Shown: positions 48,001-56,399 of the stretch, one piece after another
Layout of the letters: every line of letters begins with the position of its first letter
Position numbering within the stretch: the stretch's first letter is position 1
Assembly (NCBI GenBank): GCA_019358935.1
Contig: JAHHIK010000053.1
Span: 1-56,399 of the forward strand
Direction of reading: 5' to 3'
Source: Tolypothrix carrinoi HA7290-LM1
GTDB lineage: Bacteria; Cyanobacteriota; Cyanobacteriia; Cyanobacteriales; Nostocaceae
Length of the DNA: 56,399 nt
Program-made: the position numbers

Positions 48001-51000
48001 TGACTTAACTCAGAAGCGAGAAGTTGACGACTCAAACGCATCCGTAATTGTAAAACTGCATCCTCAGATAAGCGAATCAGCATCACTTGAGAAATGATAC
48101 TGGTAATCAAAGCAACCATCGCCAGCCCGACAAAACCCCAGGCGATCGCACTGAGGCGCGATGTGGCATCATTACTGGTAGCACGACTAATTAAGGCAAT
48201 CAGGCTAGCACTACTACCTCCACTCAGTAAACCGGTGGTGATGGCGATCGCTACCATTCCCCAAGAAGAACGCAGAAGAAAGGAAATCAAATTCATGATT
48301 GATTTGGGCACTGGGCATTGGGCATGGGGCATGGGGCATTGGGCATGGGGCATTGGGCATGGGGCATTGGGCATTGGGGAGGCAGTGCGGTCTTGGGGTC
48401 TCCCCAAGTGGAGCATCTGCCGTCATTGGGCATGGGGCATTGGGCATTGGGCATGGACAGACGTTATTTTACCTTCTGCTTTCTACCTTCTGCATAGCTG
48501 CCTCCTGCATAGCTGCCTTTACAAGCTTGATACTTCTTTATTTATGGTTCTATATTGTCTCTTAGCGGTAAGCTAGTGCAAATTAGATCGTAGTTTTTAA
48601 TCCCAAATCTAAAATCTAAAATCTAAAATTGGTATGACTGTTAATCTCAAATCTTTGGAAAAGCTAATTTCTGTAGGGGAATTGCCATCCGCTACTAATA
48701 AAAGAACTTCTTACGTTCCCTTGCATCATCGAAATATTCTGTGTATATTTCCCAAGTACAGCCGCTCGTTTGGTACTTTTCATCACGCTTACCCGCTTAT
48801 GGGTAATGTTAAGGCTTTCATGCCGCCGCAAGGTATTTTAATTGTGGCTGCTTATTTACCCGAAAAGTGGAATGTGCGCTTTATTGATGAGAATATCAAT
48901 GAAGCTAACAAGAGTGATTATCAGTGGGCAGATGTGGTAATTGTCAGCGGAATGCACATTCAGCAACCACATATTAATAAGATTAATGAACTTGCCCATA
49001 AAGAAGGTAAAATCACAGTTGTCGGGGGACCTTCGGTTTCTGGTTGTCCAGAATATTATCCGGATTTTGATATTTTAAATCTGGGTGAATTGGGAGATGC
49101 AACCGATCGCATGATTGCATATCTCGACGAAAACAGCGATCGCCCAAGCGAGCAAATTCGCTTTGAAACTAAGGAGCGTTTACCTTTAAGCGAATTTCCT
49201 ACCCCAGCTTATCACTTGCTGAATCTGAATGATTATTTTTTAGCAAATGTGCAATTTTCTAGTGGTTGTCCTTATCGCTGCGAGTTCTGCGATATTCCGG
49301 AATTGTATGGACGCAATCCTCGCATGAAAACGCCTGAGCAAGTGATTGCCGAATTGGATATGATGTTGCAATGCGGGAATCCGGGATCGGTGTATTTTGT
49401 CGATGATAACTTTGTAGGCGATCGCCGCGCCGCTATGCAACTGCTTCCACACTTGATAGACTGGCAAAAGCGCAACGGCTATCCGCTGCAATTTGCTTGT
49501 GAAGCTACACTCAATTTGGCTCAAAGTCCCAAGCTTTTAGAAATGATGCGCGAAGCTTATTTTTGCACAGTTTTCTGTGGCATTGAAACACCAGAAACTG
49601 ATGCTTTGCAAGCTATTTCTAAAACGCATAATTTGAGTATGCCGATTTTGGAAGCGGTGAAAGTTTTAAATAGTTATGGTATGGAAGTTGTATCCGGGAT
49701 CATCATCGGCTTTGATACAGATACACCAGAAACCGCAGACAGAATTATCGAATTTATTCGGATTTCGCAAATTCCTGTATTGACAATTAACCTGCTTCAT
49801 GCTTTACCCAAAACACCATTATGGCGCAGGTTAGAACAAGAAAAAAGACTAGTTTTTGATGAAAATCGGGAATCGAATATCGAGTATTTAATGCCTTACG
49901 AGCAAGTAGTAGAAATGTGGCGACGCTGCATTTCTACAGCATATGAACCGGAATTTTTATATGAACGGTTTGCTTATAATATGGTGCATACCTTCCCCAA
50001 CCGGATTAAGGTTCCTAATAGTCCGGCTCGGACTTCTTGGGCAAATATCCGCAAAGGTTTAACTTATTTCAGCAACATTTTATTGCGGGTAGGTGTGTTT
50101 GGTGACTATCGCTCTACTTTTTGGAAAATGGCAAAACCAGCATTGAAATCAGGTAATATAGAAGACTTGATTCACGTAGGACTGGTCGGACACCATCTAA
50201 TTAAGTTTGCCCAAGAGTGCGTTAACAACGAAGAATCGGCTTCGTTTTACTCCCAAAAAATACGCACCAAAATTAATAGCTAACTACAAAGGTATGAATA
50301 CAGAATAACAAGTGTTAAGTAAAAGCTCTGAATTATATAAGGAGATATTTCTGTGAAGAAAACTTTGTTTCTTAGTCCTCCTTCCTTCGATGGGTTTGAT
50401 GGTGGTGCAGGTTCTCGATACCAGGCAAAGCGCGAAATTACCTCTTTTTGGTATCCTACATGGCTGGCGCAACCTGCTGCCCTTGTGCCTGGTAGCAAGC
50501 TTGTGGATGCACCACCACACAATCAAACTGTGGAAGATGTGCTGAAAATTGCTTCGGATTACGAGTTAATTATCATGCACACCAGCACGCCTTCGCTGCT
50601 TAATGATGTGAAGTGTGCTGAGGCTATCAAAGCGCAAAAGCCGGATACACAGATTGGCTTAATTGGCGCACACGTAGCAGTATTACCAGATGTAACCCTA
50701 CGTGAAAATCCGATTATCGACTTTGTATGTCGTCACGAATTTGACTACACCTGTAAAGAACTAGCGTCAGGTAAAGCTTGGGATGAAATCAAGGGACTCA
50801 GCTACCGCGACAATAGCGGAAATATACATCACAACGAAGACCGCCCATTGATTCACGATTGGGATGCTATGCCTAGTGTATTGCCTGTGTACGCACGGGA
50901 TTTGGATATTACAAAATATTTTATCGGCTATCTGCTCCACCCTTACATTTCTTTTTACACTGGGCGCGGGTGTCCGGCAAAATGCACGTTTTGCCTTTGG

Positions 51001-54000: not shown

Positions 54001-56399
54001 AAGAGCGCTCTTCCTTGGTTTTCGTGTTTGTGTTTCGTTGATATTTCAGCGCGCTTTGCGCCGACTACGAAGATATATAATCTCAGTTAATGATTTAATT
54101 ATGAAGGCATTGATATTAGCCGCCGGCGTTGGTAAACGCTTGGGTAAAGATGGGGAAAATCAACCTAAATGCTTGCTGAAATTTAACGGAAAATCTCTCT
54201 TAGAGCGTCATTTAGATTATTTGCGTTATTGTCAAATTGAGTCAGTTGCGATTGTTGTCGGTTATCAAGCTGAGAAAATTCAAGATGAAATCACAGCATT
54301 GAAAGCAGAAAATTGGGTGAGTACAGTTTATAATCCTGACTACACCAAAGGCAGTATCATCAGTTTGGGGACTTTAAAAAAACACTTAACTGCTGGTGAT
54401 GAGATTTTATTAATGGATGCAGATGTATTATACGATCGCCGCATTCTTGAGCAACTGGTGAAAACAAATATCCCCAACTGTTTCTTATTAGATCGAGATT
54501 TTGAACCGGGAGAAGAACCGGTAAAGCTTTGCGTGCAAGATAATTATCTGGTGGAATTTAGAAAAAAACTGGCAGCGGATCTTACTTATGATTTTGCCGG
54601 CGAATCAGTGGGATTCTTTCGTTTTGAGAGTGCGATCGCTCATCGTCTTGCCGCTATCACCGAAGATTATATTACAAACAAACGCCATGAAGAACCATTA
54701 GAAGAAGCAATTCGAGATTTGTTATTAGAAAACCCTAAAACATTTGGTTACGAAGACATCACCGGCTTACCTTGGATAGAAATCGACTTTCCCGAAGACA
54801 TTAAACGTGCTAAAAACGAAATTTTACCTCAGTTATAAATAAACAGATGAATTAGTTTCTATGTCTCACGCAGAGGCACAGAGGCACAGAGAAAATATAT
54901 ACATAAATGCTAAGATTCTCTTTGCATCTACCCTGCGGTAACGCCTGACGGCGAATGCGTCTCTGCCTGAAATAATCATCCCAAAAATATACACTCATAT
55001 TTAAGACTTTTACATTCATCAGAAGAAATGGATCAAATAGCATCAGTCACCACAACAAAACAAACTAAATGCACGCAATTGCGAGAATTGCTAAAATCGC
55101 CACAACTTGAATTTATCATGGAAGCACACAATGGAATTAGCGCTCGCATTGTGGAAGAAGCTGGATTTAAAGGAATTTGGGCAAGTGGATTAGCTGTTTC
55201 TGCTCAATTTGGGGTGCGCGATAATAATGAAGCGAGTTGGACTCAAGTTGTAGAAATGCTAGAGTTCATGTCTGATGTAACTCAAATTCCGATTTTATTA
55301 GATGGAGATACAGGTTACGGCAATTTTAATAATATGCGTCGTTTAGTGAAGAAATTAGAACAGCGAGGTATTGCAGGAGTATGTATTGAAGATAAGCTTT
55401 TTCCTAAGACTAATAGTTTCATTAATGGTAGTCGTCAACCTTTAGCTGATATTGATGAATTCTGTGGTAAAATAAAAGCGGGTAAAGATAGCCAAACAGA
55501 TCCAGATTTCTCGATTGTCGCTCGAATTGAAGCTTTGATTGCCGGGTGGGATTTATCCGAAGCATTGCGCCGAGCTGAAGCTTACCACGCAGCGGGAGCG
55601 GATGCAATTTTGATTCACAGTAAATCATCTCGTCCCGACCAAGTGCTAGCCTTTGCCGAAGAGTGGGCGAATCGTTCTCCGTTGGTGATTGTACCAACTA
55701 AATATTACAGCACTGCTACCGACGTTTTTCGCAAAGCCAAGATTAGTTTAGTAATTTGGGCAAATCATCTGATTCGCGCTGCTGTAACTAGTATGCAGGC
55801 GATCGCTCGCGAAGTTCAAGCTAGCCAAAGCCTAGTTAGTATTGAAGACGATATCGCACCTGTAAAGGAAATTTTTCGTTTACAGGGTGCAGATGAACTG
55901 CTAGAAGCAGAAAAACGCTACTTTACCAACGGACGCAATTATACACGGGCGATCGTTCTCGCTGCAACTAGAGGACAAGAATTGCAACAATTAACTCAAG
56001 ATAAGCCTAAAGTTATGTTACCCATTGGTGGTAAACCTTTGCTCAGGCTTTTGGTAGATAAATTCAAAAAACTTGCCATTAATGATATTACTGTCGTCGC
56101 CGGTTTTAAGGCAGATACTATCGACGTTCAGGGAACTAAAGTTATCCGCAATGCAGATTATGAAACAACCGGAGAATTAGCTTCTTTAGCTTGTGCTTCT
56201 GCTAAATTTAGCGACGATATGCTAATAGTTTATGGCGATTTACTTTTTAGAAGTTACATTTTGCGAGATTTATTAGAGGATGTTTGAAAAGTCGAAGCAG
56301 GTCAAAAATCATGCGAGTCGTCGAATCATAATACGTATCATCGCAATATAAATAAAAGTTTCCGAAGTTTCTGGTAGACGTTCATAATCCTTACTTAAA

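Follow-up and report, generated by a model that had tools for sequence, protein, structure and literature searches.

A gene set for 2-aminoethylphosphonate (AEP) inside the hopanoid gene cluster of Tolypothrix carrinoi HA7290-LM1 suggests an undiscovered phosphonate-capped hopanoid; the copy in this strain is damaged. The window, i.e. the whole stretch of DNA analysed (56,399 nucleotides), corresponds to contig JAHHIK010000053.1 (C53), on which the genes run in the order hpnP-like, hpnJ, hpnI, CDP-alcohol phosphotransferase (CDP-AP), oxygenase remnant, pntC and pepM-pntC up to the end of an IS (Table 1; hpn and shc genes are hopanoid genes, BHT is bacteriohopanetetrol). Profile matches confirmed both the genes and the order in the genome-wide survey's note, which had placed PEP mutase, a nucleotidyltransferase and a CDP-AP beside hpnJ, hpnI and a B12 radical-SAM gene. 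HpnJ, HpnI, PEP mutase, phosphonopyruvate decarboxylase, AEP aminotransferase, HpnH and HpnA all scored above their NCBIfam cut-offs; CDP-AP and the nucleotidyltransferase were identified as Pfam matches. An Rfam search of positions 45000-56399 returned no match, and a promoter and terminator scan gave no excess over shuffled sequence (20 vs 18.5; 12 vs 7.7). The PvdE-like exporter gene also accompanies hpnP in 16 of 20 additional stretches fetched without the cassette and belongs to the host hpn locus, not to the cassette.

Table 1. Features at the right end of C53 (JAHHIK010000053.1)
Feature	Position	Strand	Evidence or remark
PvdE-like ABC exporter	46674..48416	-	TIGR01194 482.6 bits; divergent from hpnP
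hpnP-like putative hopanoid C-2 methylase, 549 aa	48634..50283	+	B12-binding + radical SAM + DUF4070
hpnJ, radical SAM of BHT cyclitol-ether branch	50353..51822	+	TIGR03471 802.9 bits, cut-off 577.6
hpnI, BHT N-acetylglucosaminyl transferase	51926..53119	+	TIGR03472 366.7 bits, cut-off 310
CDP-AP, Group 1 subfamily, predicted head-group transferase	53173..53766	+	PF01066; opens cassette
2OG-Fe(II) oxygenase 5' remnant, ~70 of ~240 codons	53787..54041	+	identity to intact relatives
Stand-alone PntC-like cytidylyltransferase, 245 aa from ATG at 54101	54101..54838	+	PF12804
pepM-pntC fusion, IS-cut after codon 416 of ~550	55028..56287	+	TIGR02320 400.6 bits, cut-off 319.55
Left end of multicopy IS, 17-bp inverted repeat, 3-bp TNA target	56276..56399	+	

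The domain architecture of the hpnP-like protein is that of HpnP and HpnP-like proteins (PMC10697835), and relatives at 80-94% identity carry the JGI name 'hopanoid C-2 methylase'. Two paralogues with 36-40% identity are encoded in the same genome. The gene occurred in 37/150 Nostocaceae genomes and adjoins hpn genes also in genomes without the cassette. As 25 of these 37 carriers were cassette-free and the PhpK model scored 80.8 (cut-off 600), a function of this B12 radical SAM protein as phosphonate methyltransferase was rejected.

Beyond the IS, the cluster continues on contig C61 with ppd, aepZ, hpnG, an AcrB-type RND transporter gene, hpnA and hpnH. The 17-bp terminal inverted repeat at the end of C53 has its partner at C61:49667-49683, and both IS ends are bordered by an identical 3-bp target, which is ambiguous by itself, being common to 2/6 left ends and 2/3 right ends. 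On C53 the PepM frame ends at residue 416; it is taken up again on C61 in exact agreement with congener G025, in which the pepM-pntC fusion is whole. Because repeats and target match and the PepM frame is continuous as in G025, the join of C53 and C61 is real, and the matching IS ends reported by the survey were borne out. The depth of the IS was ~16 times that of unique DNA in sequencing run X1, and runs X2 and X4 show no IS at this site. The sole internal IS copy (C89) has an IS630-like frame downstream, but no right end. Run X3 (depth 2) gave no cover over pntC-pepM and was too shallow to carry weight.

Ppd and AEP transaminase are encoded adjacently on C61 (TIGR03297 and TIGR03301 over cut-off). 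The survey had named hpnH, hpnA, hpnN and hpnG as their neighbours; hpnH and hpnA were upheld, whereas hpnG lies on the opposite strand and scored below its cut-off (90.6 vs 187.1), and HpnN was rejected, since the 888-aa transporter gave AcrB-type matches only, with a weak MMPL Pfam match and no TIGR03480 match at E<=1e-12. HpnN, a companion of the cassette in proteobacteria, was not found in the T. carrinoi genome. The pepM gene is indeed interrupted as reported, with the mutase domain (residues 18-289) spared. Since ppd and aepZ are cut off by this recent IS from the genes upstream, the strain's pathway is probably weakened or inactive, though the mutase domain is intact and so is the free pntC.

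PepM carries the EDKx5NS motif at residue 121, and its mutase domain is 72-78% identical to proteobacterial members. The best solved relative of the stand-alone PntC over its whole length is 6pd1, at low identity (E 1.5e-9); LicC scored equally over a shorter stretch. R13, K23 and K155 align with R15, K25 and K153, residues whose loss lowers PntC activity according to PMC6697681. In CDP-AP, the signature aspartates and DG..AR at residues 63-88 are invariant across 27 aligned rows, and the predicted model (pLDDT 92.8) has AF2299 as best fold match (Z 19.8, rmsd 2.7, 181 aligned). These features fit the signature motif and six-helix membrane fold of PF01066 CDP-alcohol phosphotransferases; the modelled fold confirms the family and cannot name the acceptor. 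The cassette is under purifying selection (dN/dS 0.11-0.18; CDP-AP 0.11 vs G025).

The oxygenase remnant shares 63-70% identity with the N-terminal part of intact relatives, which keep H-x-D...H. The same truncation is found in G025 and the gene is wholly deleted in run X2; it is intact in many Nostocaceae members. PhyH occupies the same slot in some relatives. The description of the remnant as PhyH-like had to be revised: intact orthologues gave weak matches to PF23169 and PF13640 and none to PF05721, and the remnant belongs to the HalD/2OG-FeII_Oxy_3-like oxygenase, the presumed AEP 1-hydroxylase. By analogy with characterised homologues, PepM, Ppd and AepZ would make AEP and PntC would activate it as CMP-AEP; the 2OG-Fe oxygenase, lost in this genus, would optionally hydroxylate AEP, and the membrane CDP-AP would move the AEP group onto a lipid hydroxyl.

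The linkage recurs in Nostocaceae, as the survey had stated. CDP-AP was found in 15/150 genomes, each of which also has a pepM match above cut-off, and in 14 of them an hpn gene lies within ~15 kb of CDP-AP or pepM. In the phylum sample, CDP-AP occurred in 0/194 genomes outside the family; one MAG of another family (L063), from a separate search, carries it. In a quick IQ-TREE and a FastTree analysis the Nostocaceae copies fall into a single clade. They lie next to the native C-2 methylase gene, and their recurrence goes back to one acquisition that was passed on and often lost, and so counts as a single event. CDP-AP is 40-61% identical to proteobacterial copies and shares a tree with those from Paraburkholderia, Cupriavidus and Ralstonia. 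The hpn genes around the Nostocaceae cassette are native (carrier hpnH shares 81-97% identity with non-carrier kin and 52-57% with proteobacteria), and this joining is separate from the proteobacterial one. As shc is too common in Nostocaceae (121/150 genomes), its co-occurrence within the family is uninformative, and the cyanobacterial copies, being one clade, add one event to the hopanoid link.

This history could also be that of a mobile phosphonate cassette which landed once in an hpn locus and was carried along and eroded, co-located without function. The single origin in cyanobacteria would suit it. So would three congeners that cleanly lack the cassette at the same site, the scrap of aepZ left in G146, the splitting of some loci, the oxygenase decay and the IS. 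We consider it improbable, however, given that the split-off pepM half in G116 and G145 still lies ~7 kb from hpnI, that several differing gene orders interleave the cassette with hpn genes in proteobacteria, and that genome-level shc dependence persists where the genes are unlinked.

Outside the family, shc was matched in 52/52 proteobacterial carriers, within the locus in 10 and in the genome in 42/42 (40 over cut-off). In a 299-genome class sample (counts exclude the two seed genomes), 18/19 CDP-AP carriers vs 28/280 non-carriers had shc; the carriers are partly kin, hence not independent, and Fisher values for this co-occurrence are overstated. The lone shc-less carrier, G323, has hpnH. 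In the control from the same sample, shc accompanied pepM in 18/19 genomes with this CDP-AP and in 2/10 without it, and one of the latter two holds pepM inside an hpn operon. The hopanoid dependence of this CDP-AP cassette is strong, and carriers track hpnH (35/36), not hpnI (over cut-off in 16/36). Genes in GC-rich proteobacterial loci were labelled by tblastn; L094, L106 and L115 show the order idi-hpnH-ispA-sqs-shc-hpnG-hpnA-CDP-AP-oxygenase-hpnL-pntC-pepM-ppd-aepZ, and in Salinisphaera (L077, L080) CDP-AP sits between hpnN and hpnA. One CDP-AP-HpnN fusion was found, a single sequence that could reflect a lost stop, and in 6/20 long representatives scanned CDP-AP was fused to an HpnL domain, whole or partial. 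Only 13/52 proteobacterial loci combine a core phosphonate gene with an hpn gene besides hpnL, and 28/52 lack such an hpn gene, some loci being short. The 14 records from a plasmid search were without exception large replicons of Burkholderiaceae, typed as non-mobilizable.

The shc dependence with its pepM control, the interleaved operons and the CDP-AP-HpnN fusion lend support to a phosphono-hopanoid. Going by gene context, we lean towards transfer of CMP-aminoethylphosphonate to the BHT side chain. The acceptor would be the C35 hopanoid polyol side chain, most likely the terminal hydroxyl of BHT, 2-methylated where hpnP is present, and the product would be a zwitterionic phosphono-hopanoid, an alternative to the HpnI glucosamine cap. 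The survey had proposed a phosphonate-bearing lipid, possibly a phosphono-hopanoid; its lipid part is well supported and had already been predicted in print for this cassette in Nostoc, and its hopanoid part is a reading of gene context, now backed by these three lines. A link to 'ethenolamine' hopanoids, for which only a passing mention was found in the literature, was dropped.

Instead of a hopanoid, AEP or 1-hydroxy-AEP might be placed on diacylglycerol or a similar anchor, with the hpn linkage reflecting shared membrane work, transport or regulation. Such an anchor is proposed in supplement passages of PMC5987646, after Yu et al. 2013; diacylglycerol-using choline and ethanolamine phosphotransferases share the CDP-AP fold (Z ~12), and within 10 kb, in many Nostoc, Paraburkholderia and Cupriavidus loci, hpn genes are absent or represented by hpnP alone. 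Diacylglycerol is general, yet members of this CDP-AP subfamily almost always turned up together with shc or hpnH, and the acceptor-choosing CDP-AP remains in hpn operons when pepM lies elsewhere; we regard this anchor as rather unlikely. We give still less credence to loading of AEP by CDP-AP on a lipid carrier or intermediate that is flipped by HpnL and serves an envelope polymer (lipid A, glycan), hopanoids being involved indirectly. HpnL (PF03706, MprF-like membrane domain) follows the oxygenase in at least 32 proteobacterial loci and fuses to CDP-AP, and an Omp85-family gene flanks ~10 loci, but hpnL had no tblastn match in the T. carrinoi genome (E<=1e-15) or in the cyanobacterial loci fetched, and the cassette has no glycan genes, in contrast to the shc-less pepM loci L173 and L174.

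The Group 1 phosphonolipid clusters (Yu et al. 2013, as cited) and Burkholderiales_CDP-OH (Li and Horsman 2022, PMC8942020) are the same family, which, according to passages of the latter, makes up 318/882 pepM neighbourhoods in a RefSeq survey and has yielded no characterised phosphonolipid. The Tolypothrix cassette shares with it the Ppm-PntC fusion, Ppd, AEPT, a second PntC and CDP-AP, whereas its 2OG-Fe oxygenase, intact in the published core, is truncated. It has six of the seven core genes and, for want of an HpnL-type membrane gene, the second of the core's lipid genes, is a variant rather than a full member. Unlike in the published Group 1 description, it lies among hpnP, hpnJ, hpnI, hpnG, hpnA and hpnH; 'hopan', 'hpn', 'Nostoc' and 'cyanobact' are all missing from the text of PMC8942020. 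Passages of Gagunashvili and Andresson 2018 (PMC5987646) describe the same cassette in lichen Nostoc, likewise of the Nostocaceae, thought to be horizontally acquired, and note a split form in Chlorogloeopsis fritschii. They assume DAG or alkyl-acylglycerol as acceptor, in contrast to the hopanoid proposed here, and do not mention the hpnP neighbourhood; its text and six supplements contain no 'hopan' or 'hopen', and hpnL only as a figure label. CMP-AEP formation and the three basic residues are common to the PntC phosphonyl-tailoring pathway (Rice et al. 2019, PMC6697681), for which the passages name neither acceptor nor transferase; the Tolypothrix cassette has CDP-AP as predicted transferase.

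The survey's searches had found no paper joining hopanoids and phosphonate biosynthesis; such papers do exist. Passages on Roseomonas (PMC8776678) and Nitrosococcus (PMC7285500, PMC8942020) link pepM to shc/squalene genes and speculate on terpene-phosphonate hybrid clusters and products, in one or two sentences each, for single genera, with no mechanism, no Group 1 tie and no cyanobacteria. For the linkage in cyanobacteria no paper was found in the open literature, subscription papers and bioRxiv supplements being outside reach; one supplement of 10.1101/2025.07.29.667474 gave no match, and its shc-neighbourhood tables may list these genes. The cassette is thus known in print and the phosphono-hopanoid idea has been voiced in passing for Roseomonas and Nitrosococcus; it is not unpublished.

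More tentatively, the commonest bacterial phosphonate cluster may make a phosphonate-capped hopanoid, its Nostocaceae acquirers producing 2-methyl-bacteriohopanetetrol aminoethylphosphonate via a CDP-AP with a triterpenoid acceptor, a lipid that standard hopanoid work-ups would miss. To our knowledge, no C-P species features in the older surveys of hopanoids from Burkholderia, Ralstonia and cyanobacteria, and we know of no characterised CDP-AP that uses a hopanoid; a survey of hopanoids in Alphaproteobacteria from 2025 does not contain 'phosphon'. Should a hopanoid be the acceptor, this would be a new lipid class and a new acceptor type for CDP-alcohol phosphotransferases, would give a role to orphan hpn genes and would connect phosphorus redox cycling with a family of biomarker lipids; 2-methyl-BHT aminoethylphosphonate, if true, would be a C-P-bearing form of the 2-methylhopane biomarker precursor. 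With the cyanobacterial case, next to the C-2 methylase, the joining is seen for a second time at phylum level. Named, harmless cultured carriers of a complete cassette, such as Scytonema sp. PCC 10023 (L040), Salinisphaera hydrothermalis (L080), Nevskia soli (L087) and, in split form, Chlorogloeopsis fritschii PCC 6912 (L048), together with congeners that have or lack the cassette at a shared site, offer natural controls.

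On the plus strand of contig C53 of Tolypothrix carrinoi HA7290-LM1, genes for PEP mutase, a nucleotidyltransferase and a CDP-alcohol phosphotransferase (CDP-AP) lie beside hpnJ, hpnI and a B12 radical SAM gene, as the genome-wide survey's note had it. Intergenic gaps from the radical SAM gene, whose product judged by sequence is most likely HpnP, through the oxygenase remnant are 20-103 bases. The observed locus is a real six-gene variant of the Group 1 phosphonate cassette, damaged in this strain; it is distinguished from that cassette by its six-gene form and by its setting among cyanobacterial hpn genes, next to the probable C-2 methylase gene.

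Genes of the phosphonate cassette and adjoining hpn locus
Feature	Contig	Positions	Strand	Remark
B12 radical SAM with DUF4070	C53	48634-50283	+	
hpnJ	C53	50353-51822	+	over curated cut-off
hpnI	C53	51926-53119	+	over curated cut-off
CDP-AP	C53	53173-53766	+	
84-codon ORF (oxygenase remnant)	C53	53787-54041	+	
nucleotidyltransferase	C53	54101-54838	+	
pepM	C53	55028-56287	+	PEP mutase over curated cut-off
pepM remainder, ppd, aepZ, hpnG, AcrB-type RND, hpnA, hpnH	C61			continuation; ppd and aepZ over cut-off

The proposed continuation across an insertion sequence (IS) onto contig C61 was borne out. The pepM frame, broken off at codon 416 on C53, is taken up again on C61 in phase with the uninterrupted 548-aa protein of a congener (G025), and a 17-bp inverted repeat starting at C53:56276 has its partner at C61:49667-49683, with an identical 3-bp target flanking both. 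Since other contig ends of this genome have the same target, the join is proven by the reading frame. The IS does split pepM, as had been claimed, but only the C-terminal PntC domain of pepM-pntC is hit, and the mutase domain with its EDKx5NS motif is whole. In sequencing runs X2 and X4 (contigs of ~97% identity) the order hpnP-hpnJ-hpnI-CDP-AP-pntC-pepM is retained and no IS interrupts the site, which marks the insertion as recent. Short elements of ~150-350 bp on C10, C41, C57, C75 and C86 are flanked by the 17-bp repeat too and are probably non-autonomous copies of the IS. Between this strain and G025, dN/dS is 0.11-0.18 for CDP-AP, pntC, pepM, ppd and aepZ.

The shc gene is located on C60, and hpnG on C61 is a weak match on the opposite strand. 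The C61 gene previously read as hpnN encodes an AcrB-type RND transporter. In this genome, rated 99.65% complete, hpnL and hpnN were not found by tblastn and nothing matched the hpnK family model, although hpnJ and hpnI are present; hpnK was also not found in the loci of three congeners (L147-L149). The route from glucosamine to the cyclitol may here use a different deacetylase or end early. The RND protein (888 aa, L001:10909-13575 on C61) is shorter than usual for its type; its gene has no adjoining adaptor gene and lies between hpnG and hpnA, a placement common to this genus and genome G044. A PvdE-like ABC exporter gene (TIGR01194; window 46674-48416) is divergent from hpnP and adjoining or near it; 16 of 20 hpnP stretches lacking the cassette (L147-L166) and most carriers of this CDP-AP show the same arrangement. 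With hpnN not found here, either could be a candidate cyanobacterial hopanoid transporter. Elsewhere a gene of 275-286 aa without Pfam match (L023:14154-14978; L030, L040, L052, L152, L158), ferritin-like/di-iron by ESM Atlas features and not in this strain, accompanies hpnJ, hpnK and hpnI. The downstream cassette edge carries a 21-bp tandem-like low-complexity tract (L001:14435-14749; C61:46452-46837), retained in a congener without the cassette.

By the established pathway, PepM, Ppd and AepZ, with families over cut-off, would form 2-aminoethylphosphonate (AEP). The free nucleotidyltransferase comes closest to Treponema PntC, and the three basic residues tested in that enzyme are conserved in it, which makes CMP-AEP a fair expectation for its product. 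In motif and fold the CDP-AP conforms to its family; acidic and aromatic residues that are invariant in its second half are candidates for holding the AEP amine. The remnant, described earlier as PhyH-like, instead derives from a HalD/2OG-FeII_Oxy_3-like oxygenase with an H-x-D...H triad; this gene is truncated in G025 as well and gone in X2. In four genomes (G006, G057, G075, G118) the slot holds a PhyH gene akin to methylphosphonate hydroxylase, which supports a hydroxylase role at this position. The expected product in this genus carries AEP without the 1-hydroxyl group.

Recurrence of the linkage in Nostocaceae was likewise confirmed. CDP-AP occurs in 15 of 150 sampled genomes, all 15 also with pepM over cut-off; near CDP-AP lie hpnH/A/I/J genes in seven, hpnP only in four and, within the stretch retrieved, none in four, three of which have an hpn gene 6-7 kb from pepM. 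Two further genomes have pepM loci of an unrelated kind. In the family, L167 (G069:C1) is a distinct pepM-ppd-aepZ-phyH cluster that has neither CDP-AP nor hpn genes near it, and in L168 (G054) pepM lies beside NRPS-like genes. A second CDP-AP from a separate branch (40-48% identical) lies inside the cassette together with a PhyH-type oxygenase in three family genomes (L025:11490-12140; L033:7752-8423; L031/L038). HpnP was found in 12/15 carriers vs 25/135 other family genomes. In three congeners the hpn locus is the same but for a clean absence of the CDP-AP-to-aepZ block, and genome G146 retains a scrap of aepZ. In quick, midpoint-rooted trees excluding six apparently duplicate loci, the cyanobacterial sequences fall into a single group separate from the proteobacterial ones, both for CDP-AP (38 rows, support 98) and for PepM (24 rows, support 97), and their distances follow HpnP (Mantel r 0.95 and 0.94); two genomes contribute a second CDP-AP of another branch. 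The family history thus shows one acquisition and many losses, so the family counts as one event. Family hpnH matches non-carrier kin at 81-97% and proteobacteria at 52-57%; hpnH is native, and the cassette thus joined an already resident hpn locus, perhaps together with hpnI, J and K. As shc is present in 121 of 150 family genomes, co-occurrence with it tests nothing within the family.

Outside the family, where counts rest partly on unpublished genomes (G152, G154, G156, G169, G231, G487), the best 80 of 538 CDP-AP relatives from a species-genome scan gave 28 cyanobacterial and 52 proteobacterial loci. Among these 52, pepM/ppd/aepZ occurred in 28, an hpn gene other than hpnL in 24 and both in 13; shc was matched in all 52 carriers, in the locus in ten and elsewhere in 42/42 (40 over cut-off). 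L094, L106 and L115 have a single gene run from isoprenoid supply via shc to aepZ, L077, L080 and L104 have CDP-AP between hpnN and hpnA, and in Ralstonia pickettii (L112) the cassette lies beside hpnB, A, H, I and K. For 15 genomes whose locus lacks pepM, a check located the gene at another site in 11; it was missing in four MAGs. Among 20 long CDP-AP representatives scanned of 150 listed, one was a CDP-AP-HpnN fusion and six had a long HpnL domain. An Omp85-family gene flanks the cassette in L069, L072, L082, L085, L094, L106 and L115, some also with a Rieske oxygenase weakly like the sterol demethylase SdmA. L074 and L098, hpn operons with this CDP-AP on MAG contigs labelled Enterobacteriaceae and Klebsiella, branch with other gammaproteobacteria and are likely mis-binned.

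A sample spread evenly over the class of genome G166, without the two seed genomes, had shc matches in 18 of 19 CDP-AP carriers vs 28 of 280 non-carriers; at most 11 CDP-AP candidates were scored in each genome, small MAGs are numerous and related genomes do not count as independent. The one carrier without an shc match has hpnH. As a control, shc accompanied pepM in 18/19 genomes with CDP-AP and 2/10 without, and one of these two (G423) carries its pepM within an hpn operon; pepM by itself does not track shc. HpnH was present in 35 of 36 carriers and hpnI over cut-off in 16 of 36. Since carriers depend on shc and hpnH but not on hpnI, a C35 polyol at the level of bacteriohopanetetrol is indicated as the putative AEP acceptor.

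We lean slightly towards a phosphono-hopanoid as the product. Against this stand the lack of any report of such a lipid in the accessible literature searched, more than half of the 52 proteobacterial loci (from the best 80 of 538) being unlinked to hpn genes, and cyanobacteria without hpnL and hpnN. A CDP-AP product serving as carrier for envelope decoration seems quite unlikely, and so does carriage of the cassette without function. A phosphonolipid of diacylglycerol type co-operating with hopanoids is possible, if doubtful: the cassette is known from a lichen Nostoc, where diacylglycerol was assumed as acceptor (PMC5987646), whereas a hopanoid acceptor is proposed here; 'hopan' does not occur in that paper's text or six supplements.

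The phosphono-hopanoid idea is already voiced in print, as passing remarks. The survey's note had found no paper joining hopanoids and phosphonates, but a Roseomonas study links shc to pepM and proposes an 'undiscovered terpene-phosphonate' (PMC8776678), and two papers contain a similar remark on Nitrosococcus (PMC8942020, PMC7285500). For cyanobacteria, nothing on such a link was found in the literature searched. The controlled co-occurrence and the named, harmless carriers make the phosphono-hopanoid idea directly testable.
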